This document shows positions 10,033 to 56,176 of a stretch of 64,000 bases of DNA, piece by piece. The stretch comes from Vampirovibrio sp. (GTDB taxonomy: Bacteria; Cyanobacteriota; Vampirovibrionia; Vampirovibrionales; Vampirovibrionaceae): the NCBI GenBank assembly GCA_019634025.1, contig JAHQWC010000154.1, forward strand, positions 1,309-65,308. Reading direction: 5' to 3'. A program made the translations under genes and the position numbers. Position 1 is the stretch's first letter. Each line of letters begins with the position of its first letter. A model generated the notes under the pieces. It had not been told where the DNA came from. It did not search any database and saw only the letters and a program-made list of their open reading frames with translations.

Positions 10033-10033
10033 C

Positions 10034-10888: not shown

Positions 10889-10924
10889 GAAACAGTTGCT
10901 CCTTAAGCGTTGGCGGTTATTCCG

Positions 10925-11434: not shown

Positions 11435-11539
11435 TGAACTCCAGAATCAAGGGGGCGGCAGATAAAGACTTACAGGGAAACTTCTATGGTTTTAACATAT
11501 CCGCTCACTAAAATATAGTATGGTATCGAATGCTGTTTA

Positions 11540-12385: not shown

Positions 12386-12388
12386 AAC

Positions 12389-13522: not shown

Positions 13523-13612
13523 CCGGGTTCTCCTCTTAGGGTTTTGTGGATGCGTATAATGATACTTTCAACAGTTTATTATCATCAGAATGAGCGCCGA
13601 ATACAAGCCGTC

Positions 13613-14917: not shown

Positions 14918-14964
14918 TAGCAGTTCGCTGACATTTATGAAACTTCCCGCATTTTGTCATCGTT

Positions 14965-15693: not shown

Positions 15694-15708
15694 GAAGGTC
15701 TTTTCGGT

Positions 15709-17537: not shown

Positions 17538-17539
17538 GA

Positions 17540-20233
17540 TTACGCTTTTGTCAGCGTTTTGATCTGATCTAAAATGTCTGCTTGAACTGTCTGTAACGCC
17601 TCGGCAATTTTGCTGGCATCCTTCCCCCCGGCCTGGGCAAAATTCGGCTTTCCGCCGCCGCCGCCGCCGCAGATACTGGCCACTTTCTTCACAATATCGC
17701 CTGCTGAAATTTTCTGCGCCACAAAGTTTTTAGACACTGAGGCTACAAACACGGCCTTCCCCTCCACATCCGCTGCCAACAACAGCACGTGAGATCCGGC
17801 TTTTTGCCCGACCTGCTCGGCAATGTACTTTAATCCGTCGGCGGTTTGGTTCATCTGATGAAACAACACCGGCGCCTCCGCATTTGATTCTGCCAGCTTC
17901 GCTACCACGCCGTCTACCTCCTGGGCTGCCAGTTTTTCTTGTAACGCCTTAATGGCTTTGTCTTTCGCCTTATTTTCTTCCACCAGCTTTTCTACTTTTT
18001 CAGGGGTTTCTTTCAGCGGGCTTTTCATCAGCCCGGCAATCCGGCTCAGCTCACTTTCTGATTGCTTAAACAGCCGATACGCCTTTTCCCCCGCCACCAT
18101 TTCAATCCGTCGAATGCCAGCGGCAATGGCGCTTTCAGAGGTAATCTTAATCAATCCAATCTGCCCCAGGGCATCCACATGGGTGCCGCCGCACAGCTCC
18201 TTACTCATATTGCCGTAGGTCACTACCCGCACTTCATCCCCGTACTTCTCGCCAAACATCGCCACTGCCCCGCTGGCCTTGGCGGCTTCAATATCCATCA
18301 CTAGGGCTTCTCGAGGGACGTTTTCCAAAATCCACTGGTTCACCATAAGCTCAATGCGCTGCAGCTCGTTAGGGGTTACGCCTCGGTTCAGAGTAAAGTC
18401 AAACCGCGCGCCTTCCGGAGATACATAAGATCCCGCCTGACTCACCTGATCACCCAAAACCTTTTTTAAAGCGGCATTCAACAAGTGGGTGGCTGAATGA
18501 TGAATCGCCGCCAACTGCCGGGTCAACGGCTCCACCTGAGCTTTCAGTGTTTCTCCAACCCGAAGGACTTTGCCGTTATCAAACAGGCATTTGTGGATAA
18601 ACAGCTCCCCAACTTTCATCGTATCGTTTACCACCACCGTTAACCCGTGAGGACCGTCTTCTCTGGAAAAACTGCCTCGATCTCCCACCTGCCCGCCAGA
18701 CTCGGCGTAAAAGGGTGTCGTGTCCAACACCGCTTCAAACGCCTGATTGGTTCCCCCGACTTCATCCACCGGCTTGCCATCCACAATCAGTGCTTTCACC
18801 GTGGCTTGTGTCACCAGGGTCTCATATCCCACAAACTGGGTGGGACCCACCTGCTTTAAGATCTCGGCATACACCTGATCATCCACAATAGATTCGCCTT
18901 TATGGGCTTTGCGGGCGGTTTGGCGCTGGGTGTCCATACAGGCTTCAAATCCGGCCTCGTCCAGGGTCATTCCCTGCTCTTTAAAAATATCTGCCGTCAG
19001 CTCTACCGGAAACCCATAGGTGTCATACAGCTTAAATACATCTTCTCCAGGCACCACGTTTTTACCGGCTTTCTTCAAGTCTGCCAGCACCTCATCCACC
19101 AATTTCGATCCTCGCTCCAGAGTCTCAAAAAATCGGACCTCTTCTGCTTGAATGTTTTCAACAGTTTGCTTGAATTTTTCATTGAGCTCAGGGTAAGCCT
19201 CTTGATAGCATTTTTGTACGGAGCTGGCCAGCCGGTATAAAAAGGGCTCGTTTAATCCCAAGTCTTTTTTGCCGTAGCGAACCGCCCTGCGCAAAATCAT
19301 CCGCACCACATAGCCGCGGCCCTCGTTGCTAGGTGTTACACCGTCTGCCAAACAAAAGCATACAAACCTTAGGTGATCTGCCACAATCTTCAGCGCTGTG
19401 TCTGTTTGTGGGCTTTTTCCGTAATCTTTACCGGCTAGCTTCCCGACTGCTTCCACCAGGGGCATCAATAAATCAGTTTCAAAGGTGTTGCCAGCGTTTT
19501 GCAAGACCATGGCAATCCGTTCCAGCCCCATCCCGGTATCTACATTTTTCTTTTCCAAAGGTGTTCTGTTGCCGTCTGCATCCTGAAACAGCTCCATAAA
19601 CACCAGGTTCCAGATTTCCAGATACCGCTCTTCCGGGTCAGTAAAGCTTTCACCCCGGTCTACATAAATCTCCGAACACGGTCCGCATGGGCCGGTAGGT
19701 CCTGGGGGACCCCAAAAATTATCTTTTTCATCTCTAAACCAAATCCGCTCTTCACTTACCCCCACTGTATCCCGCCAAATGTCCCGGGCTTCCATGTCCG
19801 TTTCGTACACAGAAACATATAGTTTCTCTGGCGGTAGTTTTAAGATTTGGGTGACAAACTCCCAGCTCCAGGGAATAATCTCGGCCTTAAAGTAATCGCC
19901 AAAACTAAAGTTTCCCAACATTTCAAAAAAGGTATGGTGAAAGGCTGTTCGGCCAACATTCTCCAAATCAGAGGCTTTGCCGCTGACCCGGGCGCACTTT
20001 TGCACGCTCACCACCCGAGGTGGACTTGGCGGCGGTTTAATCCCTAAAAAAATGGGTACAAATGGTAGCATTCCGGCTGGGGTCAGCAGTACGGTGGGGT
20101 TATCCGGGACTAAGCTGGCGCTGGGCTTGTGAAGGTGAGGAGTGCTGGCTTTTTCCTTGAAAAATTGGATAAACGCATTCCGGATCTCTGCGCCGGACAT
20201 AGCGGATGTGGTTGCGGCGGCGGATTCAGCCAT
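17540..20233 (-). CDS. alaS: Alanine--tRNA ligase
   Basis: Class II AlaRS motifs throughout, including the editing domain and the C-Ala domain with a Gly run. Start is probably at MAESAAA or MSGAEIRNAFIQFF; the ORF is open to 20308. Confidence 0.9.
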   Translation of the reverse strand: MAESAAATTSAMSGAEIRNAFIQFFKEKASTPHLHKPSASLVPDNPTVLLTPAGMLPFVPIFLGIKPPPSPPRVVSVQKCARVSGKASDLENVGRTAFHHTFFEMLGNFSFGDYFKAEIIPWSWEFVTQILKLPPEKLYVSVYETDMEARDIWRDTVGVSEERIWFRDEKDNFWGPPGPTGPCGPCSEIYVDRGESFTDPEERYLEIWNLVFMELFQDADGNRTPLEKKNVDTGMGLERIAMVLQNAGNTFETDLLMPLVEAVGKLAGKDYGKSPQTDTALKIVADHLRFVCFCLADGVTPSNEGRGYVVRMILRRAVRYGKKDLGLNEPFLYRLASSVQKCYQEAYPELNEKFKQTVENIQAEEVRFFETLERGSKLVDEVLADLKKAGKNVVPGEDVFKLYDTYGFPVELTADIFKEQGMTLDEAGFEACMDTQRQTARKAHKGESIVDDQVYAEILKQVGPTQFVGYETLVTQATVKALIVDGKPVDEVGGTNQAFEAVLDTTPFYAESGGQVGDRGSFSREDGPHGLTVVVNDTMKVGELFIHKCLFDNGKVLRVGETLKAQVEPLTRQLAAIHHSATHLLNAALKKVLGDQVSQAGSYVSPEGARFDFTLNRGVTPNELQRIELMVNQWILENVPREALVMDIEAAKASGAVAMFGEKYGDEVRVVTYGNMSKELCGGTHVDALGQIGLIKITSESAIAAGIRRIEMVAGEKAYRLFKQSESELSRIAGLMKSPLKETPEKVEKLVEENKAKDKAIKALQEKLAAQEVDGVVAKLAESNAEAPVLFHQMNQTADGLKYIAEQVGQKAGSHVLLLAADVEGKAVFVASVSKNFVAQKISAGDIVKKVASICGGGGGGKPNFAQAGGKDASKIAEALQTVQADILDQIKTLTKA

Positions 20234-20414
20234 GGGAGTAAGACCTCTTGAATAGATGGAGCGGGGATAAAAAACCTCCTGATTATACCCTAGAGATAGC
20301 CGTAGCAAATTTCCCCTAAACAGCCTCTTGCACTTCTTTCAAAAAATGAAAAAATAGAAGAATACGTTTGGACTATTTCCATGAACCGGTTTTGATACAA
20401 ACCGGCTTGATATA

Positions 20415-20783
20415 TTGAAGGATGTTGTTGTACACGCCATGGATAATGAAACCAACATTGTTGTTCGGGAATCCGGGGATAAATGCATTGTCCTGTTAGA
20501 CACTCAGAATGTCGATTTCCGGAACTGCGAAACCATCAAATCTTCAGTGGCGAACCTGGTGAATACCGGGAAGACCCATCTGATTTTAGGTCTTGAAAAA
20601 GTCAGCTTTATGGATAGCTCCGGCCTTAGTGTGTTGCTATTCTGCAAGCGTACCTGCGAGGAAGCTCAGGGTTCTTTTACCATGTTTGGGCTGCAAAGCT
20701 ATGTCAATAATTTGGTTACCCTCACCAACCTCAACAAATCCATCGAGATTTTCGAATCAGAATCGGATGCCCTAAAGGTTTAA
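20415..20783 (+). CDS. STAS-domain anti-sigma-factor antagonist (SpoIIAA-like)
   Basis: STAS fold motif …ILGLEKVSFMDSSGLSVLL…. Confidence 0.7.
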   Translation: MKDVVVHAMDNETNIVVRESGDKCIVLLDTQNVDFRNCETIKSSVANLVNTGKTHLILGLEKVSFMDSSGLSVLLFCKRTCEEAQGSFTMFGLQSYVNNLVTLTNLNKSIEIFESESDALKV

Positions 20784-20823
20784 GACGACAACAGGCATAA
20801 CGCAATCAGCGTAATGGGTGTGT

Positions 20824-21654
20824 TTAATAGGCTGGGCGATAAACCGTCGGTTCAGTCATGGTTGTAATCTGGGCAGGCTGTTGAAGCACCACAGTCCAGG
20901 GTTCGCCGGGTAAAAATTCTATATGCTCTCCCATGGCCCGAGGGCCTCCATACACCGTTTTATTATAGGCGCCAATGCCCACCACTCGGTGCGTTACACG
21001 CATCGGTTCAGTGCCTCTGGTGGTCATCCCTCCCCACGAGTGATCGCCTCGGCCTGTTACTACATAAGCCACAATGGGTTGGCGCTGGCCGTCCTCAAAA
21101 ATCAGGGTGTCAAATAAAATGGTTAAAATGCCGTCTCGCCCCTGAATAGGCGTCATCGATTGAACCAGTCTCCCAGACAGCCGATCCACCTTTTTTTTGA
21201 GGACTAAGCGGTTCCCCAGGTAAACATCCTGAGACACCACAGCTTCTACCGGGTCTCCGGTGCGGTTTACTGCCGTGCTTAGGGGGTTATGCAATATAAT
21301 CGGTAACGCCATCCCGGCAGGCAGAGTTAGGGTTGTATAGGGTGACTCATCGTTACCGGCGATTTCTCTGGCAGGATCGGACTCCATTTGCTCCAAAATA
21401 TCGGATAGTTCCCGGCGCTTGGGAGGAGGTTCCGCTTTTTCTCTTGCTTTTGGGGCCGCAGGTTCTACGGAAGCTTGTGGGTCTAACAGCTCGGTGGTGT
21501 CATCGTCACCTTTTGGCGGATGTAACCTGTCGTAAAAGGTTTCCGACTGATAAGAGGTGGAATCTCCCATAGAATCGGCGTATACGACGGCTGCACCTGC
21601 TATAAAGCAACTCATCAATAGGGCATACAATGCAATTCTGCTGACTGAAGACAC
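20824..21654 (-). CDS. Hypothetical secreted protein
   Basis: N-terminal signal peptide (IALYALLMSCFIAGAAVVYA), a Pro/Glu-rich linker and a C-terminal beta-rich domain. Confidence 0.45.
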   Translation of the reverse strand: MSSVSRIALYALLMSCFIAGAAVVYADSMGDSTSYQSETFYDRLHPPKGDDDTTELLDPQASVEPAAPKAREKAEPPPKRRELSDILEQMESDPAREIAGNDESPYTTLTLPAGMALPIILHNPLSTAVNRTGDPVEAVVSQDVYLGNRLVLKKKVDRLSGRLVQSMTPIQGRDGILTILFDTLIFEDGQRQPIVAYVVTGRGDHSWGGMTTRGTEPMRVTHRVVGIGAYNKTVYGGPRAMGEHIEFLPGEPWTVVLQQPAQITTMTEPTVYRPAY

Positions 21655-31523: not shown

Positions 31524-32084
31524 CTAGACTTTCAGATAGTTCTTCACACCGGTGAACATGGCATTGAGGAGGCCAATATTGGCTAGGGGATCAATGCCGC
31601 CAGCGGTTAAATACTGCTGCAGACGAGCTTGCCAGTAGGGGTAGATATCGTCTTTTTGAATTTCCAGCACGTTGGACACAGCCGACAGTTGAGACCAGTC
31701 TAATGGCATGGGTAAAGCACCGCGCCACATGTCCACAATTTCCAGCCGTTGGTTGCGGGGAAATTTTTTGAGTAACTGGACGTTGCTGAGACCCATTTGA
31801 CCTTGACGTTGCTTTAAGAACTCAATACCCGGATCCAACAAGCGAGGCTCTTCGGGGCGTTTATACTCCGGAAAGTCTTCCGGCTCCATACCCATTACCA
31901 CCGCAATCCGCTCTAGGGTGGTGGTTCTGGTGGAAAATGCGATTTCGCGGTCAATCAAACTATACACATACGACAGGGTGACGCCGATCATCTCGGCAAA
32001 ATCTTTTTTGTGGAGATTAGTCTCGTCCAAAAACTGGATGAGCCTGTCACTGCTATTCGCCTGTGTGCCAACGGTGGTTGACAT
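31524..32084 (-). CDS. Helix-turn-helix (XRE-like) DNA-binding protein
   Basis: N-terminal HTH (LHKKDFAEMIGVTLSYVYSLIDRE). Confidence 0.5.
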   Translation of the reverse strand: MSTTVGTQANSSDRLIQFLDETNLHKKDFAEMIGVTLSYVYSLIDREIAFSTRTTTLERIAVVMGMEPEDFPEYKRPEEPRLLDPGIEFLKQRQGQMGLSNVQLLKKFPRNQRLEIVDMWRGALPMPLDWSQLSAVSNVLEIQKDDIYPYWQARLQQYLTAGGIDPLANIGLLNAMFTGVKNYLKV

Positions 32085-39402: not shown

Positions 39403-40170
39403 CTACTTATCCAGATTGGCATTGAGCGTTGATGTATCGCTAAAGCAGTAGAGCTGGGCGGGGCGGTGATAGCCTTCCATTTTGGTTTCACCCACATCCT
39501 TGAGAATACCGGAGGAAATAATCTTTTTACGGAAATTCCGTTTATCAATCTTCTTTTCCAAAATCAATTCATAGACCCTTTGCAGCTCCGTCAGCGTGAA
39601 TTTCTCTGGTAAGAGTTGGAATGCAATGGGTGTGGACTCCAGTCGTGTCTTGAGTCGACTGAGAGCGTAATCCACAATACGGCGGTGATCAAATGCGAGG
39701 TCCGGTAGTTCCGTAATACAGTGCCATCCGATATTCTCTGCGTTGGCGTGAGCCTCTAACTTTAAGCTGCTGGAACTAACCAAGGCATAGTAGGCAACGG
39801 TAATAACCCGAGCTCTGGGATCTCGCCCCGGCTTACCAAAGGCATAAAGCTGTTCCAGGAAAATATCATGGACGTTGGTTTCTTCCTGAAGGCGGGCGCC
39901 GGCAGCTTCTTCTAAAGTCTCACCCTCATGGATAAACCCCCCAGGAATGGCCCACATATGAATAAAAGGCTCTTGTTTCCGTTGGATCAGCAGTGCCTTT
40001 AGGCGATCGTCTTGAATCGTGAACACCACAATATCTACGGTGACCAGGGGAATCTCGTATTCCGATAAAACGGTATCTGTTGACGACTCCGGAGATTTAC
40101 TCCGCTGGATCGATTGAATAAAAGAATCTGTCACAAACCACTTTCCTGTTGTTACGTTGGTGGATGGCAA
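39403..40170 (-). CDS. NUDIX hydrolase fused to a C-terminal winged-helix domain (NrtR-like ADP-ribose pyrophosphatase/NAD regulator family)
   Basis: Nudix box GGFIHEGETLEEAAGARLQEETNV, plus an ~80-aa C-terminal domain resembling the NrtR wHTH. Confidence 0.55.
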   Translation of the reverse strand: MPSTNVTTGKWFVTDSFIQSIQRSKSPESSTDTVLSEYEIPLVTVDIVVFTIQDDRLKALLIQRKQEPFIHMWAIPGGFIHEGETLEEAAGARLQEETNVHDIFLEQLYAFGKPGRDPRARVITVAYYALVSSSSLKLEAHANAENIGWHCITELPDLAFDHRRIVDYALSRLKTRLESTPIAFQLLPEKFTLTELQRVYELILEKKIDKRNFRKKIISSGILKDVGETKMEGYHRPAQLYCFSDTSTLNANLDK

Positions 40171-42824: not shown

Positions 42825-42980
42825 TTTTGCTTGCGGATCCCGGACTTTGCCGCCTATAATATGAAAACAAACTTGCGGGGTGGTTTCCTTCATCAGAGAT
42901 TTCTGGAACAGTTTGAACCGGAAATGTTTGCCAAAAAGGTGTCACCGGTACGCATTTAGAACGAGAAAAAGGAATTTGCA

Positions 42981-45510: not shown

Positions 45511-46284
45511 ATGCAATCCACTCAGCCGTTCCCCAAACCTATTCACCCAAGCGTCATTGGTGCTAATCAGCCGCTGGACGTTTTTCGCAAGATACCCCTG
45601 TTTGACTCTCTGACCGAAGCTGATCTGACGTTTATTCGTCCTTTCTTCCATGAGTCTCGGTACGAAAAAGAGAGCGTTATTTTTTACGAGCGAGATCTCC
45701 CCAAAGAGTCCGGCGCCAAAGTTTATTTTGTGTCATCGGGTTGTATTAAGCTGGTGAAGTACTCTTCTGATGGTGAGAGCACCATTGTTCGTCTCGCGTC
45801 AGTCGGAGAATTCTTCGGTGTTACCGGCGCCCTGACAGATAAACCTTATCCTTTCTCGGCAGAAGCTCTCTCGGATACCAGTATTCTCTATGTCGGCAAA
45901 GACGATTTTGTAAACCTGGTGGGACGTTACCCGCAACTCGCCCTGGATATGGTGGTGCAGTTGGGTGAGGTGCTTTGGTTCAATTACGAAACGCACAATC
46001 AAGTGGTCAAGAAAACCGACGCCCGAGTCTCTAAAATCATCCTGTATCACCTCAAACGGGATGGGTATCAGGATACCCCTGATGGCAAAATATTGAACAT
46101 CAACCTGCCCCATGACTATATGGCCAGCATGACCGGTATTGCCTATGAAGAGTCCGTCCGGATCATCAGCCGTTTGAAAAAACAGTTTGGCTGCATCAAC
46201 TACCTGCGCGGCGGCAAAATTGTGATCAAAGATTTAGACTGCTTAAAAAACATTGCCCAGTTAGACGAAGCCTGGGGCTACTAA
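45511..46284 (+). CDS. Crp/Fnr-family transcriptional regulator
   Basis: cNMP-binding beta-roll (…GEFFGVTGALTDKPYPFSAEAL…) plus a C-terminal HTH (…MTGIAYEESVRIISRL…). Confidence 0.75.
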   Translation: MQSTQPFPKPIHPSVIGANQPLDVFRKIPLFDSLTEADLTFIRPFFHESRYEKESVIFYERDLPKESGAKVYFVSSGCIKLVKYSSDGESTIVRLASVGEFFGVTGALTDKPYPFSAEALSDTSILYVGKDDFVNLVGRYPQLALDMVVQLGEVLWFNYETHNQVVKKTDARVSKIILYHLKRDGYQDTPDGKILNINLPHDYMASMTGIAYEESVRIISRLKKQFGCINYLRGGKIVIKDLDCLKNIAQLDEAWGY

Positions 46285-47562: not shown

Positions 47563-48735
47563 ATGGCGTCACAAAGATTTGACCACCTGCAATACTGCAT
47601 TCGCTGCTGCATGCCTGAAACCCAAGAGGGCCTGAAGTTCGATGAAATGGGCATTTGCCAAGCTTGTCAGTCGTCGGAGCAAAAAATTCATATTAACTGG
47701 GTCGAACGAGAAAGAGTTCTCAGAAATCTTCTAGAAGACGTGAAGGCCAAAGCGGGCAATAATTACGATTGCATCCTGCCCATTAGCGGTGGTAAAGACA
47801 GCACGTTTCAAATGCACGTATTGGTCAACGTCTATAAAATGAAGCCTCTGGCGGTTACCTTCAGCCATAACTGGTTTAGCGAAACCGGTTGGTATAACCT
47901 CACCAATGCTCTTGAACAGTTTGATATCGATCACATCCTGTTCACCCCCAACCGAGGGCTGGTGAACCGGTTGGCCAAAAAATCTTTGTCCGCCATTGGC
48001 GACTCTTGTTGGCATTGCCACAGTGGCATTGGCGCCTTCCCCTTACAAATAGCGGTTAAGTTTAATATCCCTCTCCTCATCTGGGGCGAATCCATTGCCG
48101 AAGCCTCAGGCCGAGCCTCTTATTTAGAGCCGGTGCGTAAGTTTGACCGGGAATACTTCACCAAGGTGTCTGCCAAGGTGAAGCCAGAAGACATGGTGGG
48201 TGATGGCCTGACAGAAAAAGATCTTCAGCCCTTTATGTTGCCCAGTGCCGAAGAGTGCGAACGCGTTGGCCTGTATGGCATTCATTTGGGTGATTACATT
48301 TTTTGGGACGATGAACGCCAGACCGAATTTGTCCGGGATACATACGGCTGGAAAGAGACCGAAATTGAAGGTGCTTTTAAGTGCTATAAAAGTGCTGAAT
48401 GCGTTATGCCCGGCATGCATGATTTCACCTGCTACCTTAAACGCGGCTTTGGCCGTTCCTCATACCAAGCCAGTGTGGATGTGCGTAATGGTCTCCTGAC
48501 TCGAGAAGAAGGATTTGAGCTGGCCAAAAAAGATATGGAACGTCCTGAAGCCCTTGATTATTACTTAAAAATTACCGGCTTAACTGAGGAAGAATTTTAC
48601 GAGACCATGAAATCCAAACGCGTTCCTCAACTCCAAGGCGTTGATTTGCCGGTGATCGAAAAGACTCGCCCCAACCGCGAACGCATCCTCCCGTATCCCC
48701 AGCAACTTCAAGAAGATATGTCGCCTAAAAAATGA
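47563..48735 (+). CDS. N-acetyl sugar amidotransferase (PP-loop ATP pyrophosphatase; LPS/polysaccharide biosynthesis, WbuX/PseA-like)
   Basis: N-terminal CxxC…CxxC zinc ribbon (CIRCCMPE…GICQACQ) followed by PP-loop ILPISGGKDSTF. Confidence 0.7.
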   Translation: MASQRFDHLQYCIRCCMPETQEGLKFDEMGICQACQSSEQKIHINWVERERVLRNLLEDVKAKAGNNYDCILPISGGKDSTFQMHVLVNVYKMKPLAVTFSHNWFSETGWYNLTNALEQFDIDHILFTPNRGLVNRLAKKSLSAIGDSCWHCHSGIGAFPLQIAVKFNIPLLIWGESIAEASGRASYLEPVRKFDREYFTKVSAKVKPEDMVGDGLTEKDLQPFMLPSAEECERVGLYGIHLGDYIFWDDERQTEFVRDTYGWKETEIEGAFKCYKSAECVMPGMHDFTCYLKRGFGRSSYQASVDVRNGLLTREEGFELAKKDMERPEALDYYLKITGLTEEEFYETMKSKRVPQLQGVDLPVIEKTRPNRERILPYPQQLQEDMSPKK

Positions 48736-50213
48736 TGATGAGCGAAAAAAGCGGATTCCTATTCACCTCAATTGCCGATATCCAAGCCCGCTTGGCAAAC
48801 GGCAGCCTGACGCCCACAGAAGTTGCCCAATGGGCTATTGATGTGGTGGAGTGTCTGGAACCCTACGTAAAAGCCTGGGTCCGGTTTGATGCCCATCAGC
48901 TCATGGATCATGCAAAAGAAGTTGAAGCCCACCTGAAATTCGGCCAATCCTTGGGTTCTCTTACAGGTATTCCAGTCGGTATCAAAGACATGATGAATAC
49001 TGCAGACTTCCCTACCGAAATGGGCAGCCCGTTGTGGCAAGGCTTTACCCCTGGCAACGACGCCCGGGTGCTCTTTTACCTGAAGCAGGCTGGTGCGTTG
49101 GTTCCGGGTAAAACCGTTACGGCAGAATTTGCCGTCCACACGCTGGATAAAACCCTCAATCCCCATGATCCCACACGTACCCCCGGCACTTCTTCCAGTG
49201 GCTCCGCTGCTGCGGTTGCTGCCGGCATGGTTCCGGTGGCTCTGGGCACTCAAACCGCAGGTTCTATTGTCCGCCCCGCCAGTTTTTGCGGAGTCTATGG
49301 TTGCAAACCTTCCTTTGGGCTCATCCCTCGCACTGGCATGCTCAAAACTACCGATAGCTTGGATACTGTCGGCTTTTTTGTGTCCCACCTGGTAGATATG
49401 GAGCGGGTCTTTGATGTGGTCCGGGTCCACGGCCAAAACTTTCCTCTTAGTCATGCCGCTCTTAGAGATGAAGCTCGTCAAAACAAACCCCCTGGTAAGC
49501 CATGGCGCATTGCATTTGTGAAACCCCATGTCTGGGACGATGCTCACCCCTATGCCCAAGAGGCTATGACGGGCTGGGTCGAAAGCCTGAAAAACATACC
49601 GGATGTCGAGGTGGTGGAGGCTGATTTACCCTCTGAAACTCTTGATTCCCATCGGATCCACGCCACCATCTATAACAAAACCCTGTCCTATTATTTTCAG
49701 GAAGAATTCAAAAAAGCCGAACTGGTGTCTCCGGTCATGAACGATCTCATCACCCAAGGGCAAGCCATCTCGGTAGAAGCTTATCAACAGGCCCTCAAAG
49801 ATCAGGAAGCCATGGCCCAAGTGGTAGATACATGGATCCAGGATTTTGATGCTGTTGTCACTTTAAGTACAGCAGGCGAAGCTCCTCTGCGTGAAGACAC
49901 CGAACGCCCGGATTCGGCTCTCCTCTGGAACATGACCTACCTCCCCGTAATCAGTGCTCCTACGTTTATTGGCCCTACCGGCCTCCCCTTCGGCCTCCAA
50001 CTCGTCGCCCGCCGTTATAATGACTATAAATTGTTCAAAGTCGCAAGCTATTTCAACACCCACGGCCTGTTGCCGGATGGGGTAAATCCAGTTGCCAAAA
50101 TAGTCAAAAATATTGTCGGCTCTGGTCAAGGTGTCATTCCCGCAGAGGCGACCATGGCCGTGTGCAACGCAGGAGCACATACGGATATGGATACCCGTGG
50201 TGGAACCCGTTGA
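48732..50213 (+). CDS. Amidase-signature family enzyme (GatA-like amidase)
   Basis: AS signature [45 protein letters not shown]. Start overlaps the upstream gene's stop by 4 nt. Confidence 0.8.
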
Positions 50214-52099
50214 CAGCATTTGCTATAAACACTCACCATATCTTTACCGAGGCCATCACCCCCGAAGCCCTCGGCTTCCTAAAACAACACGCCAAAACCA
50301 CCCCCAACATCATTTGCTACCTCCCGGCAGACAACCTTCCTGTCCCAAGCCCCAGCAGCCTGCCTCCAAATGTTACCCTTAAATCTTTTAAAGACGAAGA
50401 CCAAGTTTTCGACCCCATTCTTCACGCTTACCAAATCGGTCGAGAAATTGCGGATACCCTTATCGCCGACCTCACCTCCCGGCACCCACAATGTTTCCAG
50501 CTCCCTGGGACTCCATATGATTTTCAACCCCTGTTCACCTTTAACACCCAATTTCACTTTGCCCGCCACCAGTTCAACTTTTGGCTCAACTGCGTTCATC
50601 AAATCACGGCATCTAAGACTCATCAATTTACCTTCCTCAACTTCAGCTATCTGTTTACCCCTTCCTGGAAGGTATTAGCCCAAAGGTTTCCGCAGCTAGA
50701 CCAATCCAACTGTGATTGGCAGCATACAGGCGATTTGCCCAACCGGGTGGGCTTAAAACTTACCGCCTCCCTCACCCGGTTCAAATACCGGCTCAAACGA
50801 CAACTCAAACCCACTCAGAATAGATCTGATAGAACCGGTGGAACACTCTCCTACGTCCGAGCCTCCCATCATTTAGATATGGTGGAGCCTACCCTGGCTA
50901 TTTTGTCAGAATCCCAGCCTGTTACTTTGTTGGACTACCTGCCGTCTAAATTCCATAAAACCCATCCCAACTACCTGACTGGTCGAATTGACCGATACCC
51001 TGGTATTCATCCTACGAACCCACGGCAGTTTCATCCCAGCCATACCATGCTACGCCGGGTCCACCGGCATCAGTTGTCTCTGACCAAAGTGATCCTGAAA
51101 CAAAAAGAGCCGGTTCTCCGCCAACAAGATACGCTCCTCCTCGCTCAGCTGCAAAAACAATTGAAGCAGTTTTTAAGATTGGAATCCATTATCAGTCACC
51201 TTCAGCCCACTATGGTGGTGGCCTGTATGGAAGCCGACGCCTTCAGTCTGATCTTGCAAGAATTGCAAAAAACCACGCCGTTTAAGACCATCAACCACTT
51301 GCATGGAGTGGCCCCATATTTTTACGCCATGGATCTATGCCGGTTTGACGCCTTTATGGTGTGGAACCAACTGACCAAGGAAATCCTCATCAAAGACGGC
51401 TACCGGGATGTCGAAGAAGGTAAACCGGTTTCCATTCAGGTGGTGGGCACCCCGTTTTGGGAAGGTAACGGTGATCTGGATACTGTCAGTGAGGAAACCG
51501 AGATTGTCCAAGACCTTCGCCGGTGGAAAGGCAATGCAAAGTTGATCGTGGCTTATTCTACCGTGTTGGTGACGTATGTGACCCCTAAGCAAAAGCAAGA
51601 TTACTTTGAGACCCTGGGTACTTTCTTATCGGACCATCCCACCGCCAAGATGGTGATTAAAAAACACCCTAATGAGTTCGATTCCCTTGTCCACACCTTT
51701 TACAACAACCTTCCTCAATCTATCAAAGATCGGGTCCGGCTGATGGAAGCCAAAGAACTTCCTCTATACGAATCCTTCCGGGTAGCGGATGTTGCCGTGG
51801 CCATTTGCTCCAGCGTGTTGCAAGAAGCCCTTTACTACCGAGTTCCTGCTGTCTCCTTGGACTACGAAAAAGTCATTGCATTGCTGGGTTATGGGTTTGA
51901 GCAAATTATGGCCGTGGTCACAGATCCGATGGAAGCACCGACTGTCTTAGACCGGGTGCTTAAGAATGGCATTGCTGATGAAGCCTTTGCTGAGGAAACC
52001 CGGCAAAAAGTTTTCCCAAAATTCTTGGATCGTTATCCAAATCGAGTTCGACGGGTACTTTCAATGTTAACTTCTCCACAAGCTTGCCCCACACTGTAG
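50162..52099 (+). CDS. TagF-like CDP-glycerol glycerophosphotransferase / capsule polysaccharide biosynthesis family protein (putative)
   Basis: C-terminal …VIKKHPNE…ADVAVAICSSVLQEALYYRVPAVSL resembles the KxHP…(ITDYSS)-type motif of Glyphos_transf enzymes. The longest ORF overlaps the amidase 3' end by 52 nt. Confidence 0.4.
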   Translation: MQRRSTYGYGYPWWNPLTAFAINTHHIFTEAITPEALGFLKQHAKTTPNIICYLPADNLPVPSPSSLPPNVTLKSFKDEDQVFDPILHAYQIGREIADTLIADLTSRHPQCFQLPGTPYDFQPLFTFNTQFHFARHQFNFWLNCVHQITASKTHQFTFLNFSYLFTPSWKVLAQRFPQLDQSNCDWQHTGDLPNRVGLKLTASLTRFKYRLKRQLKPTQNRSDRTGGTLSYVRASHHLDMVEPTLAILSESQPVTLLDYLPSKFHKTHPNYLTGRIDRYPGIHPTNPRQFHPSHTMLRRVHRHQLSLTKVILKQKEPVLRQQDTLLLAQLQKQLKQFLRLESIISHLQPTMVVACMEADAFSLILQELQKTTPFKTINHLHGVAPYFYAMDLCRFDAFMVWNQLTKEILIKDGYRDVEEGKPVSIQVVGTPFWEGNGDLDTVSEETEIVQDLRRWKGNAKLIVAYSTVLVTYVTPKQKQDYFETLGTFLSDHPTAKMVIKKHPNEFDSLVHTFYNNLPQSIKDRVRLMEAKELPLYESFRVADVAVAICSSVLQEALYYRVPAVSLDYEKVIALLGYGFEQIMAVVTDPMEAPTVLDRVLKNGIADEAFAEETRQKVFPKFLDRYPNRVRRVLSMLTSPQACPTL

Positions 52100-52139
52100 G
52101 TAGGACCTCTTCGGGATTACAAAGAGCCTTCCACCAGGC

Positions 52140-52517
52140 TCAAACCCACAACACCGCGTCCATCTGTGGAAAGGGTGACCACCCGCCAGAGCCCTGTGCA
52201 AACGGCGTCTGCGGTAGTACGGCCTGAGGTGCTGGCACATTGGCAATTCTGGCCCAATTGCTAAATTTACGAGTATCCACCGGCTGCCCGTAGATGTCTG
52301 AGGCGATAAACTGAACGGAATCCCGTCCCTCTCCCAATAGCGAGTTTACGGTGTAAATATCTGGTAGCGAGGCCAACATCGCCTCTGCAGCTTGCTGTTG
52401 TTCTTCCTCGTCAACAACGTAATAGTCAGTACGACCGTCCGCATCCCGATCAGGACTACCGCCCATTGATGCGGTCACTCCTGGGTTGCTATACCCTGCA
52501 TTCATGTGAATCGACAT
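52140..52517 (-). CDS. Small protein carrying only the N-terminal module shared with the neighbouring lysozyme and M23 peptidase (hypothetical)
   Basis: N-terminus MSIHMNAGYSNPGVTASMGGS…AMLASLPDIYT aligns with the N-termini of the products of 52681..53505 and 53683..54558. Preceded by a duplicated upstream element. Confidence 0.5.
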   Translation of the reverse strand: MSIHMNAGYSNPGVTASMGGSPDRDADGRTDYYVVDEEEQQQAAEAMLASLPDIYTVNSLLGEGRDSVQFIASDIYGQPVDTRKFSNWARIANVPAPQAVLPQTPFAQGSGGWSPFPQMDAVLWV

Positions 52518-52527
52518 TATTTTGTTG

Positions 52528-52581
52528 TCCCAACCTGCCTATATCCATGTATATAAAAACAAATAGTTTGTTTTTTGTGCG
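52528..52581 (-). promoter_or_regulatory. Conserved upstream element, copy 1 (putative promoter/leader of 52140..52517)
   Basis: TCCCAACCTGCCTATA-n8-TATAAAAACAAA-n9-TTTTGTGCG. The same blocks with identical spacing recur at 53511..53565. Confidence 0.5.
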
Positions 52582-52680
52582 CATTTGTTGCGTTTTTTTA
52601 CCTGAAGGAGAAGGGAGACAGACGCTTTCAAGCTGAAGCATTCTAGTATCCAGCCAGGTTCAATATAAACGACTCTCTAC

Positions 52681-53505
52681 TTAGCTGGTTAGAGGCTGAT
52701 CAGACCGACTATCCTCTTTCAAAAACCGATTCGCCTCACGTTCTCTGCGTGCGACTAAAACGGGATGAACATTTCCACCCGCCTTATTCCATCGAAGAAA
52801 CTCTCGGGCTGCCCCTGCATAGTCCTTATTGTTTAACTTCTTCAATAACGTACTTTTTCTAAAGCCACCCGTCCCAATGTTATACGAGAGGGATACTAGG
52901 CTATCAAACATATTGGTTGTTACCGGTACTTTTACATGGTGTTTAATTACAGGTTCAATTTTTTCAGCGATCCATCGTTTGAAATCACTTTTTGCTTTGG
53001 CTTGAGTAACGGTTTCCCCTTTACGCACTTTACGCCAACTACCATTTTCATAAATATAATGTAAGCCGTATCCAACAGCATATCCCTTATAGTCCCAATA
53101 TGCCTTACCACGGAAACCTTCTTCTTTCATCAATGCTTCTAATCCAGCTTTAGAGGTTTTTAAATCGTTAATAGGGACTGCATTTTCATCTACATCAATC
53201 ACTAACCCATCGGTTAATCCTGCTAATTGCAACTGGCTATCTGCCTTTTCGCTTTCATCTCCAAGTAAACCCCATAGGGCCAATACAAAGGCTTCTGTAG
53301 GAGAGTTCTCCAAACTGGCCAAATCGGTTAAATCATCTGATTTGCCCTGATTAGCGCTCAGTTCAAACGTATCAACATCGCTCAGCATCGCTGCGGCAAG
53401 TGCTTTGGTAGTTGCTTCGTATACCTCACCAGGCTTAACAACGCTTGTGTTCCTAACACCAGAAGCTGCATTATATGGATTCTGTCCAATAGATGTCATG
53501 ACCAA
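52681..53505 (-). CDS. GH24 (T4/lambda-type) lysozyme with a ~130-aa N-terminal extension
   Basis: C-terminal domain …GFRGKAYWDYKGYAVGYGLHY…TNMFDSLVSLSYNIGTGGFRKSTLLKKLNNKDYAGAAREFLRWNKAGG…VLVARREREANRF is a typical phage-type lysozyme core. No signal peptide. Confidence 0.8.
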   Translation of the reverse strand: MVMTSIGQNPYNAASGVRNTSVVKPGEVYEATTKALAAAMLSDVDTFELSANQGKSDDLTDLASLENSPTEAFVLALWGLLGDESEKADSQLQLAGLTDGLVIDVDENAVPINDLKTSKAGLEALMKEEGFRGKAYWDYKGYAVGYGLHYIYENGSWRKVRKGETVTQAKAKSDFKRWIAEKIEPVIKHHVKVPVTTNMFDSLVSLSYNIGTGGFRKSTLLKKLNNKDYAGAAREFLRWNKAGGNVHPVLVARREREANRFLKEDSRSDQPLTS

Positions 53506-53510
53506 TACAA

Positions 53511-53565
53511 TCCCAACCTACCTATACTTAATAGTATAAAAACAAAAGTTAGGGCTTTTGTGCGG
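53511..53565 (-). promoter_or_regulatory. Conserved upstream element, copy 2 (putative promoter/leader of the lysozyme gene)
   Basis: TCCCAACCTACCTATA-n8-TATAAAAACAAAAG-n7-TTTTGTGCGG. Block spacing is identical to copy 1. Confidence 0.5.
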
Positions 53566-53682
53566 TTAAATTATAAAATGTAACATTTATAAAACAATCT
53601 AACATCAATTACCCATCCCCAGTCTTTATACAACTAGATATTCGTTTTTTAGGATAGGTTGGTAAAAAGGTAGGCTAGGCAG

Positions 53683-54558
53683 ATGGTCGATTTTAATGCC
53701 GGATTCGGCAGACAATCCAATTTTTATTATGGTTCTCAAGGCGGGCTTTACGGGCCTCGTCCCACGCTCATCAGCGATTATGACTTGCTCTTCGGTGGTA
53801 CGCCGTATGGCGAAAACCCCTTGCTGGACGACAGCTATAGTGCAGATTTTATGTATAGCCGTAGTAATGGCGATGATGATGGTGGCAGCAGTTGGTGGGA
53901 CTGGGGCAAATGGATCCTGGGTGGTGCAGCAGCGTTAGTGGGTGCCTCGTTTGCCTTTGGCGATAAAAACCCCGGCTTCCTGGGCAAAATTAGAGATGGC
54001 ATTAAAGGAATTTGGAATAAGTTTTTCGGTTCCGATGATTCAAGTGTTGGCCACCGCGATGAGTATTCATACCCGCCCCAAGAAATAACAGATGCCCAAC
54101 GTAAAACCGCCAAAGAGAACGGAACAGATTCACTCTCATTTACCAGGCCTGTTGCTGGCGGAAGAATAAGCTCCCACCATGGAATGCGAGAGCACCCGAT
54201 AGAAGGAGGGCTAAAAATGCATAACGGGGATGACATCGCCGTAGGAAAAGGCACTCCGGTAAATGTAACCGCCGATGGAATTGTTGTTGATGTTCAAGAC
54301 GAGGATAAAGGCAAATACGGACGGTATATTGATGTCCTTCACTATGACAAAAAAGAAGGAATCTATTATCTAACTCGTTATGCACACCTTGATAAAACAG
54401 ACGTAACGATTGATCAGGAAGTTAAGCAAGGGGATGTTATTGGCAAATCCGGCGATTCGGGTGCAGTAACAGGAGAACACCTCCATTACGAAATCCATAA
54501 AGGGGACGCAGAGGGGGTAGATTTTAAAACCATCGATCCCAAATTAAATGATGCATAG
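53683..54558 (+). CDS. M23/LytM-family metallo-endopeptidase with a ~150-aa N-terminal extension
   Basis: HHGMREHPIEGGLKMHNGDDIA (HxxxD) and GEHLHYEIH (HxH) motifs. N-terminus MVDFNAGFGRQSNFYYGSQGG resembles the N-terminus of 52140..52517. AGGTTGG motif in the leader. Confidence 0.8.
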   Translation: MVDFNAGFGRQSNFYYGSQGGLYGPRPTLISDYDLLFGGTPYGENPLLDDSYSADFMYSRSNGDDDGGSSWWDWGKWILGGAAALVGASFAFGDKNPGFLGKIRDGIKGIWNKFFGSDDSSVGHRDEYSYPPQEITDAQRKTAKENGTDSLSFTRPVAGGRISSHHGMREHPIEGGLKMHNGDDIAVGKGTPVNVTADGIVVDVQDEDKGKYGRYIDVLHYDKKEGIYYLTRYAHLDKTDVTIDQEVKQGDVIGKSGDSGAVTGEHLHYEIHKGDAEGVDFKTIDPKLNDA

Positions 54559-54802
54559 ACTCCCTAGTTATAACAGTTTCTATTTGTAGAGAAGATTCTG
54601 TTAGCCATTTTGTTGCTTTCTTACAAAGGCTAACTACAGTATCAATATGAATTATCCAACGCCTTGTAAGCATCAGCCTAAAAACCATGCCCTAATGTTG
54701 GGACATGGGGCATTTTTCACGTCGTCAAAAACCTTTCGATAAGGGCTTTTCCAACAAATGTCCCAGAAAATGCGTTTTTTAAAACGGGACATTTTGGGGA
54801 AC

Positions 54803-56176
54803 CTAAAACAGCAACCGGAAGAGCAAAAACCGCCCGTTTAACTTCTCAGAAAACTCTTTCATGTTCTCCGTAGTCTCTTTGGTATCCTGAATCATCTCCC
54901 GCAGGCTGGCATCCTCTTCATCCATCAAAGTATCCACCTCACCCAATACCTCAGACAGTTTCGTCAGCGAATCATTCAACGTGGTAATTGAACTATCCAA
55001 CCGCTGCTGCAAATCTTCGTCGGTGGCCGCTTTCTTCAGCTGCGCCACCAGCACCGCCGCATCCCGGCTGGTATCTCGGGTTGCCGCCAATGTTTCTTTC
55101 AACGCCGGATCATCCAAAATATCACTCAGTGCCTTGGAAGACGATTCCAACGAATCGGCAATGGAAACCACATCCTGCTTCAACTTCGGATCCCCAATTA
55201 GCTCGTTCACATTCTCACTCACCACCGTTACGTTTTTCGCCAGCATATCACTGGTTTCCACCAGCTTCGCCAAATCGTGCCCTGCCGATTGAAACAGCGC
55301 GTTGGCGCTATCCAGCACCTCAGTGGCTCGAGCAGTCATTACCTCGGTATTCTTCAGAGTATTGTTCAGGGTGGCAATGGTCTCATCCGACAATAACTCC
55401 GAAATCTTCTCGTTGGTCACCGTCAGGGCTTCTGCCGAATCCAACTGAATCTCCAGAAACCGCTTAATCCGCAGTGGGTTTTCCACCGTAAAAATCAAAT
55501 CCTTGTCCGGCATGTCGGTTAATACCGGCTCATCCGAAATAATCCGCAAAAAATATTCCTGATTGTCATCTAAAACCAGCTCATAAATAGGGTTTCTGGG
55601 TAGCAGTGCACCAGGCCGGGTAATGCGGAAAAACAGCTTATGCCGCACCAGATTTTCATCCATATGTTTATCAACTTTTTCCACTGCCCCAACGCTTAAT
55701 AACCCTTCCTGATACAAAAATTTCACCGGCAACCCAGCCTCAATGGCCTTTGCCGGATTAGAAAATGTGGTGATACTGACCTCCTGCAACTGCGGTGGGG
55801 TAATCTCTAAAAACTTTTCGCCAATAATCCCCGACTGTTCAATGGCAAGCTTGGATCCCTCCGGCACCTCAATGGTTGCATCGTTAATGCTGAAGCCTAC
55901 TTCCACATAGTACTTATCACTCACTTCCACGGCCTGGATTCGATCCACAAACCCCACTCGGATCCCCATAATCTGAACCGGCGCCCCTTCACGCATGCCG
56001 TCCACATCCTTAAACAGCACTGTATGCTGCTCTCCACCCACCAAAGATCGTCCGCTCAGCCAGATCAAAACGAATACCAGCAAAGACAGACTGATAACAA
56101 ACAGGACACCAACTTTTACCGCCGAGGAACGTTGCATGAAAACTGCCTTACTGCCTTCTCTCCGTAACCGAAACAC
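54803..56176 (-). CDS. MCE/MlaD-domain protein with a long C-terminal coiled-coil region
   Basis: N-terminal TM helix, then an MlaD domain (…VLFKDVDGMREGAPVQIMGIRVGFVDRIQ…), then ~250 aa of heptad-rich sequence. Confidence 0.65.
   Translation of the reverse strand: MFRLRREGSKAVFMQRSSAVKVGVLFVISLSLLVFVLIWLSGRSLVGGEQHTVLFKDVDGMREGAPVQIMGIRVGFVDRIQAVEVSDKYYVEVGFSINDATIEVPEGSKLAIEQSGIIGEKFLEITPPQLQEVSITTFSNPAKAIEAGLPVKFLYQEGLLSVGAVEKVDKHMDENLVRHKLFFRITRPGALLPRNPIYELVLDDNQEYFLRIISDEPVLTDMPDKDLIFTVENPLRIKRFLEIQLDSAEALTVTNEKISELLSDETIATLNNTLKNTEVMTARATEVLDSANALFQSAGHDLAKLVETSDMLAKNVTVVSENVNELIGDPKLKQDVVSIADSLESSSKALSDILDDPALKETLAATRDTSRDAAVLVAQLKKAATDEDLQQRLDSSITTLNDSLTKLSEVLGEVDTLMDEEDASLREMIQDTKETTENMKEFSEKLNGRFLLFRLLF

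Follow-up and report, generated by a model that had tools for sequence, protein, structure and literature searches.

A three-block element shared upstream of a lysozyme gene and a small orphan gene in Vampirovibrio sp., a candidate promoter and leader

In a stretch of 64,000 nucleotides from a Vampirovibrio sp. MAG (henceforth the 64-kb window, or simply the window), two adjacent genes on the same strand, one for a lysozyme and the other for a small orphan protein, are each preceded by a 54-nt element which on the coding (minus) strand reads CGCACAAAA-N9-TTTGTTTTTATA-N8-TATAGGYAGGTTGGGA. Comparison of the two copies supports the view that they constitute a selected cis element whose spacing is constrained. 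Most likely, the element is a cassette common to both genes, present in a worn form at the divergent gene for an M23 metallopeptidase. The reading that we prefer, and to which we give an even chance of being correct, is that of a cis-regulatory cassette private to this lineage, made of a promoter and the start of a short mRNA leader.

The genes of the cluster and the features discussed below are listed in Table 1. All three proteins have orphan N-terminal parts: residues 1-124 in the lysozyme and ~165 amino acids with a hydrophobic segment in the M23 protein, where the Peptidase_M23 domain follows. The lysozyme and M23 genes show atypical GC3 values (0.35 and 0.42, respectively). Between the lysozyme gene and the small gene, the minus strand showed no terminator. 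The surroundings are those of an ordinary chromosome, with MreB, tRNA synthetases and ABC transporters, and no matches to defence-system models (PADLOC) were obtained.

Table 1. Positions, in the window, of the element, its parts, candidate promoters and neighboring genes.
Feature	Positions	Strand	Basis or remarks
Copy 1 of the 54-nt element, before the small orphan gene	52528-52581	-	repeat search
Copy 1, block A (CGCACAAAA)	52573-52581	-	
Copy 1, spacer 1	52564-52572	-	
Copy 1, block B (TTTGTTTTTATA)	52552-52563	-	
Copy 1, spacer 2	52544-52551	-	
Copy 1, block C (TATAGGCAGGTTGGGA)	52528-52543	-	
Copy 2 of the 54-nt element, before the lysozyme gene	53511-53564	-	repeat search
Copy 2, block A	53556-53564	-	
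Copy 2, block B	53535-53546	-	
Copy 2, block C (TATAGGTAGGTTGGGA)	53511-53526	-	
Credible degenerate third copy, before the M23 peptidase gene	53613-53662	+	two-copy profile, nhmmer
Candidate sigma-70-like promoter above copy 2, TTGTTT-16-TATAAT	53570-53597	-	consensus match only
Candidate sigma-70-like promoter after the lysozyme stop, TTTATA-18-TAGAAT	52640-52669	-	consensus match only
Candidate sigma-70-like promoter for the M23 gene, TATACA-17-TAGGAT	53627-53655	+	consensus match only
Small orphan ORF, 125 aa (MBX2861821.1, KTR14_11355)	52140-52517	-	best codon score of six frames
Terminator-like hairpin directly after the small gene	52124-52141	-	
Lysozyme gene, 272 aa	52681-53499	-	Phage_lysozyme (PF00959), residues 125-255
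M23 metallopeptidase gene, 291 aa, divergent from the lysozyme gene	53683-54558	+	Peptidase_M23 (PF01551)

The two full copies lie 983 nt apart, align without gaps and have 39 of their 54 bases in common (72% identity). When shuffled intergenic pairs were compared, the best ungapped 54-nt match averaged 26.3 ± 1.3 identities and never exceeded 32 in 200 shuffles; a chance origin of the repeat is excluded. The window contains two sites that carry blocks A and B with three mismatches at most (none were found in 100 shuffles), and block C occurs at these two sites alone. The duplicated upstream element described in the first-pass annotation is therefore real, and the six block coordinates and sequences given there are exact. 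Its block offsets of 24 and 45 nt are likewise the same in both copies, while its estimate of 12-15 nt to the start codon was slightly too long: 10 nt separate copy 1 from the ATG of the small gene (52517), and 11 nt separate copy 2 from the ATG of the lysozyme gene (53499).

Identity is unevenly distributed along the element. The blocks match at 36 of 37 positions (97%; 15 of 16 in block C) and the spacers at 3 of 17, which is the random level, but the spacer lengths of 9 and 8 nt are kept. The difference between blocks and spacers has a Fisher p value of 3e-9, with part boundaries set post hoc, and a permutation test on match/mismatch transitions that needs no boundaries yielded a p value of about 0.001. 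Outside the element, neither the intergenic DNA on its flanks nor the coding sequences can still be aligned. Because mismatches are clustered and spacing is kept, the pattern points to selection on three motifs at fixed distance, as is the case in promoters, rather than to a recent duplication. Furthermore, each copy is equally far from the start codon of its gene, and the two genes are adjacent and on the same strand, so that common regulation, as initially proposed, is the natural reading. The region of the element has an A+T content of 62-68% (the genome has 48% G+C), and block C consists of consecutive NNGG tetramers (TAGG-YAGG-TTGG).

A search of the window with a profile made from both copies added a third copy, absent from the first-pass annotation, before the M23 gene. 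This site is the best non-self nhmmer match of the profile in the window. Its E value is 0.61, yet we consider it a credible degenerate copy because its position and coding-strand orientation fit the M23 gene. It consists of a block-B-like sequence (GTCTTTATAcaactAGATAT) and a block-C-like sequence (AGGaTAGGTTGG), in this order and with ~10 inserted nt in between; block A is not recognisable. More TAGG repeats are found between the third copy and the ATG of the M23 gene (53683), and the M23 leader contains five TAGG units.

As judged from the geometry of the element, block A (CGCACAAAA) would occupy the -35 slot, and the terminal TATA of block B would be the -10 region. The 9-nt variable stretch plus TTTGTT would make up the spacer between them, and block B would also provide a T-tract. 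The 8-nt variable stretch would then act as discriminator, and transcription would begin in the first bases of block C or close to them. When the TATA in block B is taken as the -10, a spacer of 16-19 nt indeed locates the -35 hexamer within block A and the start on block C, and both variable stretches match promoter parts that are constrained in length and not in sequence. Block C (UAUAGGYAGGUUGGGA) would be the conserved 5' end of a leader of ~25 nt, endowed with a Shine-Dalgarno-like AGGYAGGU, and an activator might bind the dyad ACAAA-N10-TTTGT that blocks A and B make up between them. As a predicted outcome, expression of the small protein and of both peptidoglycan hydrolases would be turned on jointly.

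By geometry alone, the layout (block A in the -35 slot, spacers of 9 and 8 nt) is that of a promoter for any sigma factor, and to this extent the shared promoter plus leader of the first-pass annotation stands. A lenient sigma-70 scan detected no hexamer pair inside either copy; in a weight-matrix scan, the best pair within the element (ACAAAA-17-TATACT, 5.0 bits) was found in the lysozyme copy only, and better pairs lay outside, including one upstream of the element for the lysozyme gene. In two of the three copies, the -10 candidate (TATATA or TATACA) ends without the conserved T. The third copy also speaks against a promoter, as its B-to-C distance is ~10 nt longer and block A is missing; the candidate promoter of the M23 gene is built from its block-B-like and block-C-like pieces.

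Since blocks A and B are unlike the sigma-70 consensus and other genes of this genome do have TATAAT boxes, involvement of an alternative sigma factor or an activator is probable. A dedicated sigma factor or activator thus likely reads the element, and among the options raised at first sight a dedicated regulator is the one we favor. No sigma factor gene is present in the window. The comparison with sigma-factor consensus sequences that had been advised gave no canonical sigma-70 match, and, to our knowledge, none of the consensus motifs for sigma-70, sigma-54, sigma-28, sigma-32, ECF factors or cyanobacterial SigF fits blocks A and B. The Bacteroidetes-type, LexA, CRP/FNR/NtcA and Pho-box motifs known to us were likewise discarded for lack of fit.

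The closest parallel is found in the promoters of alternative-sigma regulons (ECF, sigma-28, SigF-type). As in these, two blocks occupy the -35 and -10 slots at a fixed distance, spacer and discriminator are free in sequence but fixed in length, and the arrangement recurs before functionally related genes, near the start codon. The differences are that CGCACAAAA and TTTGTTTTTATA fit no consensus known to us, and that block C, with its 16 nt, is longer than an ordinary Shine-Dalgarno sequence.

Block C has a mixed standing as a ribosome binding site. UAGGYAGGU pairs at -7.3 kcal/mol with GAUCACCUCCUUU, a generic 16S tail that may not be the one of the host, and this energy is comparable to those of other genes in the window (-5 to -12 kcal/mol). 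One would expect, however, a distance of ~4-10 nt to the start codon, and most other genes in the window have their Shine-Dalgarno sequence at 4-9 nt; for the small gene and the lysozyme gene the distance is 15-16 nt. The M23 gene has a separate AAAGGUAGG 8 nt from its start codon.

The main alternative, which we regard as possible but rather unlikely, is that the whole 54-nt element is a transcribed 5' leader located below ordinary sigma-70 promoters, with copy 1 serving also as the intercistronic region of the small gene. Such a leader would act on translation or mRNA stability through weak A-U hairpins (A/B and B/C) and the GG repeats of block C. It might be bound by an RNA-binding protein or a small RNA, offer a standby site to the ribosome, or form a temperature-sensitive hairpin covering part of the Shine-Dalgarno-like sequence. 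The candidate promoter above copy 2 has its predicted start on the first bases of block A, and the one after the lysozyme stop codon would endow the small gene with a ~116-nt leader containing copy 1. Because sigma-70-like matches exist above both copies and the lysozyme gene is not followed by a terminator, the whole element could be transcribed. Other genes in the window have near-perfect TATAAT boxes and leaders of 25-50 nt. Against this reading, the four sigma-70-like matches found in the region compare with 3.4 expected from shuffles, and copy 1, unlike copy 2, has no -10 box beside block A.

The evidence from RNA folding is similarly divided. RNAalifold predicts two hairpins, each with one compensatory double change, and when the spacers were randomised the A-B hairpin of each copy proved more stable than expected (P 0.07-0.11 and 0.03-0.04). 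The NNGG repeats of block C and the TAGG units of the M23 leader also agree with a role at the RNA level. However, the consensus structure has an energy of -3 kcal/mol only, and covariation cannot rest on two sequences. Folding of whole leaders gave z-scores of -1.4 and 0.0, with structures that are unlike between copies. Moreover, the A-B hairpin has a different register in each copy, and for the B-C hairpin only copy 2 gives a significant result.

A certain likeness to fourU-type RNA thermometers and standby sites can be seen, as pairing is possible between the U-rich UUUAUAY and RUAUAGG, the latter sharing with the Shine-Dalgarno-like block its first AGG; the stems contain A-U and G-U pairs only and are hence marginally stable. 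In contrast with A-U-rich control hairpins, most of the Shine-Dalgarno-like block (AGGUUGGGA) is unpaired, the energy is negligible and support comes from one copy only. Rfam 15 gave no match at the gathering score in the whole window and none at E <= 1 in the region 51500-54500, and a riboswitch finds no support. Two reading frames were discarded: a conserved upstream mini-ORF, as TTG-TAT-TGG-TCA-TGA is present in the lysozyme copy only, and a small plus-strand ORF over the element, whose frame differs between the copies.

A further possibility, which we deem improbable, is that the blocks are operators for a dimeric transcription factor, either a repressor or an activator, in an otherwise ordinary promoter region. 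Conservation would then reflect binding of the regulator instead of contacts with RNA polymerase. Blocks A and B are partly reverse-complementary, and block B ends and block C starts with TATA; the resulting dyads, ACAAA-N10-TTTGT and TATA-N8-TATA, have their axes 21 bp apart, about two helical turns. In the third copy, the ~10 nt inserted between the B-like and C-like parts amount to one helical turn. The window does encode several regulators, namely a Crp family protein (45511-46284), an OmpR-type pair (15709-17537), an HTH protein (31524-32084) and an NrtR-like protein (39403-40170), but no regulator gene adjoins the cluster. None of the operator consensus sequences known to us is matched, and the 16 nt of block C are not palindromic. 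The extra complementary positions differ between the copies, a trait more in keeping with base pairing than with a protein of fixed preference. It must be noted that operators would overlap with a promoter plus leader and do not exclude it.

MerR-type promoters, which have spacers of 19-20 bp, offer a partial parallel to such an arrangement. Here, too, the putative -35 and -10 have an inverted repeat (ACAAA-N10-TTTGT) between them, and if CGCACA and TATAnn are taken as hexamers the spacer is long (~20 bp). On the other hand, there is no MerR-family gene nearby and no MerR operator consensus, and the -35-like hexamer has only ACA in common with TTGACA.

That the element is devoid of present function, be it as a relic of duplication, a generic repeat or mobile-element end, an attC-like site or a phage late promoter, is highly improbable. 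A relic should have decayed neutrally and its mismatches should be evenly spread, in contrast with blocks at 97% identity and spacers at the random level. The joint duplication of genes and regulatory region proposed in the first-pass annotation finds marginal support in a Smith-Waterman comparison of the small protein with the N-terminal region of the lysozyme (z = 2.9; 6 of 500 shuffles scored as well against residues 1-125). BLASTP, however, detected no homology between these two proteins, BLAST and MAFFT revealed no protein module shared by the three genes, and AlphaFold models of two orphan regions were uninformative (pLDDT 40 and 43). The N-termini of the small protein and the lysozyme read M-SIhmN and MTSIgqN.

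Neither does the element behave as a generic repeat. In 64 kb there are two full copies and a degenerate one, all before start codons, and none was found in 1.3 Mb from 84 other loci; within this range, a dispersed repeat (REP/MITE) or mobile-element end is not supported. GTTGGGA in block C differs by one base from the attC core GTTRRRY, but this single near-core has no inverse partner, nor is there a long dyad of the attC kind, and an integron attC site is not supported either.

Concerning phages, the lysozyme is of phage type, the lysozyme and M23 genes are atypical in GC3, and two motifs are reminiscent of phage late promoter cores: TATAGG resembles what we take to be the -4 to +2 core of T7-class promoters, and TATAAAAA, on the strand opposite to the genes, presumably resembles the T4 late TATAAATA. 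In T7-type promoters, however, positions -17 to -5 are conserved, whereas positions -5 to -12 counted from the GG fall here in the variable spacer, which thus includes the specificity region (-12 to -8); and TATAAAAA, being on the non-coding strand, points away from the genes. The neighborhood is chromosomal: except for the lysozyme domain, no phage genes are found nearby, and the window harbors neither a phage RNA polymerase nor a gp55-like factor nor a prophage context. The element had no matches in IMG/VR and chance matches only (E about 9) among GenBank phages. The suggestion of a phage late promoter is therefore not supported.

The promoter plus leader that we prefer would be confined to a narrow lineage. 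The exact element was found neither in GTDB species genomes nor in JGI metagenomes. A relaxed pattern (block B plus TATAGGNAGG) retrieved one metagenomic locus from three samples, which lacks block A and GTTGGGA and is at chance level. A search of 5.8 billion clusters gave no homologue of the small protein. No homologues were found for the N-terminal parts of the lysozyme and M23 proteins; for the former, a full HMMER scan of 1.84 billion representatives was also negative. Clusters at 90% contained this MAG and one identical Logan contig only. The nearest genomes were identified by way of the GNAT-nitrilase gene in the flank (74% identity); they show no synteny, and none of the three genes is present in them. 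Two full copies are all that is known, and an orthologous locus, which would provide a phylogenetic footprint, was found in none of the collections searched. In the literature searched, we found nothing on promoters of Vampirovibrio or Melainabacteria, and no description of a promoter or regulon in Vampirovibrionia.

A shared promoter and leader is an ordinary kind of feature and has no bearing on a long-standing open question. If correct, however, the motif would provide a handle on gene regulation in Vampirovibrionia, a non-photosynthetic and partly predatory sister group of the cyanobacteria. It would also mark the three-gene cluster of cell-wall hydrolases as co-regulated, and would supply a search pattern for the rest of the regulon across the whole MAG. 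A bolder speculation, unlikely to be right, is that the element, together with the first codons, makes up an "expression and targeting cassette" specific to the lineage. In a predatory Vampirovibrio, this cassette would have been grafted onto acquired GH24 lysozyme and M23 peptidase domains and an orphan partner protein, and its reading by a new dedicated factor would define a small regulon for predation or cell-wall attack. The reader would be a dedicated sigma factor, an activator or an RNA-binding protein, the hydrolase domains would have been horizontally acquired, and the members of the regulon would have in common not only their 5' control region but also a disordered leader peptide at the N-terminus (M-x-SI/NAG-Y/F ...).

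A minor benefit of the motif, if it is what we propose, would be to help settle the start codon of the small orphan gene, which has been called in three ways in public annotations. Besides the 125-aa version, calls with different starts yield proteins of 121 and 108 aa. We favor the ATG at 52517 because its distance to block C equals that of the lysozyme ATG.

The upstream element reported in front of two genes of the hydrolase cluster consists of three blocks (A, B and C) separated by two spacers. When its two copies were re-checked, the sequences and positions in the first-pass annotation proved exact. A repeat search returned them as a single ungapped 54-nt family with 72% identity (39 of 54 positions), lying on the coding strand of both genes and ending 10 nt (copy 1) and 11 nt (copy 2) before the respective ATG. 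The match is far above chance: in shuffled intergenic regions, the best 54-mer match was 26.3 ± 1.3, with a maximum of 32. Blocks A and B, allowing up to three mismatches, were found at these two sites only and in none of 100 window shuffles, and block C occurs in the window at copies 1 and 2 alone.

Features of the hydrolase cluster and of related sites, with positions in the window
Feature	Position	Strand	Sequence or description
Copy 1, before the small orphan gene	52581 to 52528	minus	CGCACAAAA aacaaacta TTTGTTTTTATA tacatgga TATAGGCAGGTTGGGA
Copy 2, before the lysozyme gene	53564 to 53511	minus	CGCACAAAA gccctaact TTTGTTTTTATA ctattaag TATAGGTAGGTTGGGA
Candidate third copy	53613-53662	plus	GTCTTTATAcaactAGATAT, about 10 inserted bases, AGGaTAGGTTGG
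M23 leader	53650-53682	plus	TAGGA TAGGT TGG ... AGG TAGGC TAGGC AG ATG
Small orphan ORF	52140-52517	minus	125 codons
Lysozyme gene	52681-53499	minus	124-residue orphan N-terminal region, then PF00959 domain
M23 peptidase gene	53683-54558	plus	~165-residue orphan part including hydrophobic segment, then PF01551
Candidate promoter 5' of copy 2	53597-53570		TTGTTT-16-TATAAT
Spacer 1/block C complementarity, copy 2	53511-53560	minus	GCCCUAACU nearly complementary to AGGUUGGG
Terminator-like hairpin	52579-52600	plus	GCGCATTTGTTGCGT then TTTTTTT
Block-B-like partial match	42855-42874	minus	AAGTTTGTTTTCATATTATA
Neighbouring ORF	50162-52099	plus	645 aa, no Pfam domain
Neighbouring ORF	47563-48735	plus	390 aa, no Pfam domain
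Inverted repeat	54749-54801		TTCCAACAAATGTCCC / GGGACATTTTGGGGAA, 21-nt loop
MlaD-domain gene	54803-56176	minus	TATAAT 4 nt before annotated GTG

The 15 mismatches between the copies are clustered rather than evenly placed. Blocks A, B and C together are identical at 36 of 37 positions, while the spacers keep their lengths (9 and 8 nt) and agree at 3 of 17 positions, which is random expectation or lower. The difference gave p = 3e-9 in a Fisher test with block boundaries set post hoc, and p about 0.001 in a boundary-free permutation of match/mismatch transitions. Beyond the element, the two intergenic regions show no remaining alignment. A recent duplication would have left even similarity, and an old one under neutral decay none; the comb pattern is the one expected from purifying selection on three motifs and their spacing, and we thus regard the element as functional and under selection. 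It is a genuine cis-regulatory sequence of three parts, kept by selection and restricted to a poorly sampled lineage, and belongs to a well-known type of feature.

The most economical model, held with moderate confidence, is the promoter plus leader originally proposed, and the block geometry fits it. The TATA that ends block B would be the -10 region; with a spacer of 16-19 nt, the -35 hexamer would then lie inside block A, and the 8-nt variable stretch would be the discriminator (usually 6-8 nt). Transcription would start where block C begins, and block C would head a leader of ~25 nt. With this layout, the unconserved stretches would be promoter parts fixed in length but free in sequence. 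In simple and weight-matrix scans the blocks showed no resemblance to TTGACA or TATAAT, whereas good TATAAT boxes precede other genes of the window. An alternative sigma factor or an activator would thus be required, and the partial dyad ACAAA-N10-TTTGT of blocks A and B could be its site. Pairing of UAGGYAGGU in block C with a generic anti-Shine-Dalgarno tail yields -7.3 kcal/mol, comparable to other ribosome-binding sites of the window; this Shine-Dalgarno-like motif lies 15-16 nt from the ATG, against 4-9 nt for other genes. Such spacing suits neither this model nor that of a wholly transcribed leader neatly, and block C may have a further role.

That the element is transcribed as a whole and acts as RNA is the main alternative, though a less probable one. 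A weight-matrix scan detected a candidate promoter just 5' of copy 2, with its predicted start on block A, and a simple scan detected TTTATA-18-TAGAAT after the lysozyme stop codon and no terminator between the lysozyme and small genes; the element may thus be transcribed whole. Such sigma-70-like matches are, however, no more frequent upstream than in shuffled sequence. RNAalifold predicted small A-U hairpins between blocks A and B and between B and C, with one compensatory double change each, and in each copy the A-B hairpin was stronger than with randomised spacers (P 0.07-0.11 and 0.03-0.04). Yet the consensus structure reaches only -3 kcal/mol, copies 1 and 2 pair in different registers, only one of them supports the B-C hairpin, and whole-leader folds are no better than shuffles. 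In copy 2, spacer 1 can fold onto block C (-12.5 kcal/mol; P 0.006-0.03 against randomised spacers), which would hide the Shine-Dalgarno-like block; copy 1 has no equivalent. A plus-strand terminator-like hairpin overlaps block A of copy 1, with no plus-strand gene ending there and no counterpart at copy 2. It was rejected as a lysozyme terminator because its minus-strand stem trails into A residues. No Rfam family reached its gathering score in the entire window, and none appeared at E <= 1 near the locus.

A regulator site had also been suggested, and a role purely as an operator is improbable. A non-functional, mobile or phage sequence, taken together, is very improbable. A generic repeat was rejected: the element did not recur in the rest of the window, nor in other loci totalling 1.3 Mb (two Vampirovibrionales contigs among them), GTDB species representatives or JGI metagenomes, and a relaxed pattern matched one, unrelated locus. 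The earlier idea of a phage late promoter was not borne out, with 0 matches in IMG/VR, chance-level matches only in GenBank phages, and a neighbourhood that is not a prophage; the specificity positions of T7-type promoters correspond to the variable spacer, and the T4-like TATAAAAA is found on the strand opposite to the one required. Also discarded were an attC site (a single near-core, no long dyad) and a conserved opposite-strand peptide, for which copies 1 and 2 would use different frames.

A profile of the two copies was run over the entire window, both strands included. Its top match after copies 1 and 2 (E 0.61, alone below significance) lies directly 5' of the third adjacent gene, that of the divergently transcribed M23 peptidase, in the orientation of its coding strand; the odds of the top background match falling there are roughly 1 in 1,000. 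No block A is recognisable in this degenerate copy, and past it the leader carries more TAGG units up to the ATG. Most probably, the element places two peptidoglycan hydrolases and an orphan protein under common control. Block C is itself made of three NNGG tetramers, and possible roles of such TAGG/NNGG runs are binding of a GG- or UAG-repeat protein, a two-layer G-quadruplex or a reiterated Shine-Dalgarno site. A partial block-B-like match between CutA1 and MreB (nhmmer E 0.9), on the strand that encodes neither gene, is probably due to chance.

Duplication of the genes along with their upstream region, as initially claimed, is weakly supported. BLAST found no similarity between the small and lysozyme proteins; an ~80-residue alignment of the small protein with the first 125 lysozyme residues is marginal (z = 2.9, equalled by 6 of 500 shuffles), and the two proteins start with M-SIHMN and MTSIGQN. 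Low-confidence AlphaFold models from single sequences (pLDDT 40 and 43) both begin with a disordered stretch followed by a helix, which agrees with duplication without proving it. The M23 N-terminus (MVDFNAGF) and the small protein (MSIHMNAGY) have no more than NAG[YF] in common, a non-significant match.

Ordinary chromosomal DNA makes up the window, which encodes MreB, alanyl- and aspartyl/asparaginyl-type tRNA synthetases, ABC transporters, an SLH-OprB porin, lipid A acyltransferase-like hexapeptide proteins and several regulators. The lysozyme is identical to GenBank MBX2861822.1 (MAG: Vampirovibrio sp.), and one Logan contig (SRR12681089) is 100% identical across 8,350 bases. No homologues were found for the small protein, nor for the lysozyme and M23 N-terminal regions in 5.8 billion clusters; HMMER, run in full over 1.84 billion representatives, gave no match to the lysozyme N-terminal region. 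The catalytic domains have proteobacterial nearest relatives, Acinetobacter-type 149-aa lysozymes and sphingomonad-type M23 peptidases. The lysozyme (0.35) and M23 (0.42) genes have a lower GC3 than the small ORF and the 645-aa ORF next to it (0.54-0.55), a hint that they were acquired from elsewhere; together with the proteobacterial relatives and the orphan N-terminal parts, this suggests acquired catalytic domains joined to lineage-specific N-termini. The 645-aa ORF had no PADLOC match. By codon score, the frame of the small ORF is the best of the six; public calls give 125 (GenBank), 121 (Logan) and 108 aa (another NCBI call), and the 125-residue start is favoured because it keeps the ATG at the conserved distance from block C.

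In the nearest genome available, that of Vampirovibrio sp. JTS-AC367, the neighbours of the conserved GNAT-nitrilase gene are quite different, and the locus (10001-21545) contains no MlaD, M23, lysozyme or small ORF; the hydrolase cluster thus does not belong to a conserved neighbourhood. The inverted repeat, situated where the M23 and MlaD-domain genes converge, is probably a terminator region that they share. The TATAAT before the MlaD-domain gene is perfect, and the protein is 457 aa as annotated and 444 aa in Logan; either the mRNA would be leaderless or the real start codon would lie further downstream.
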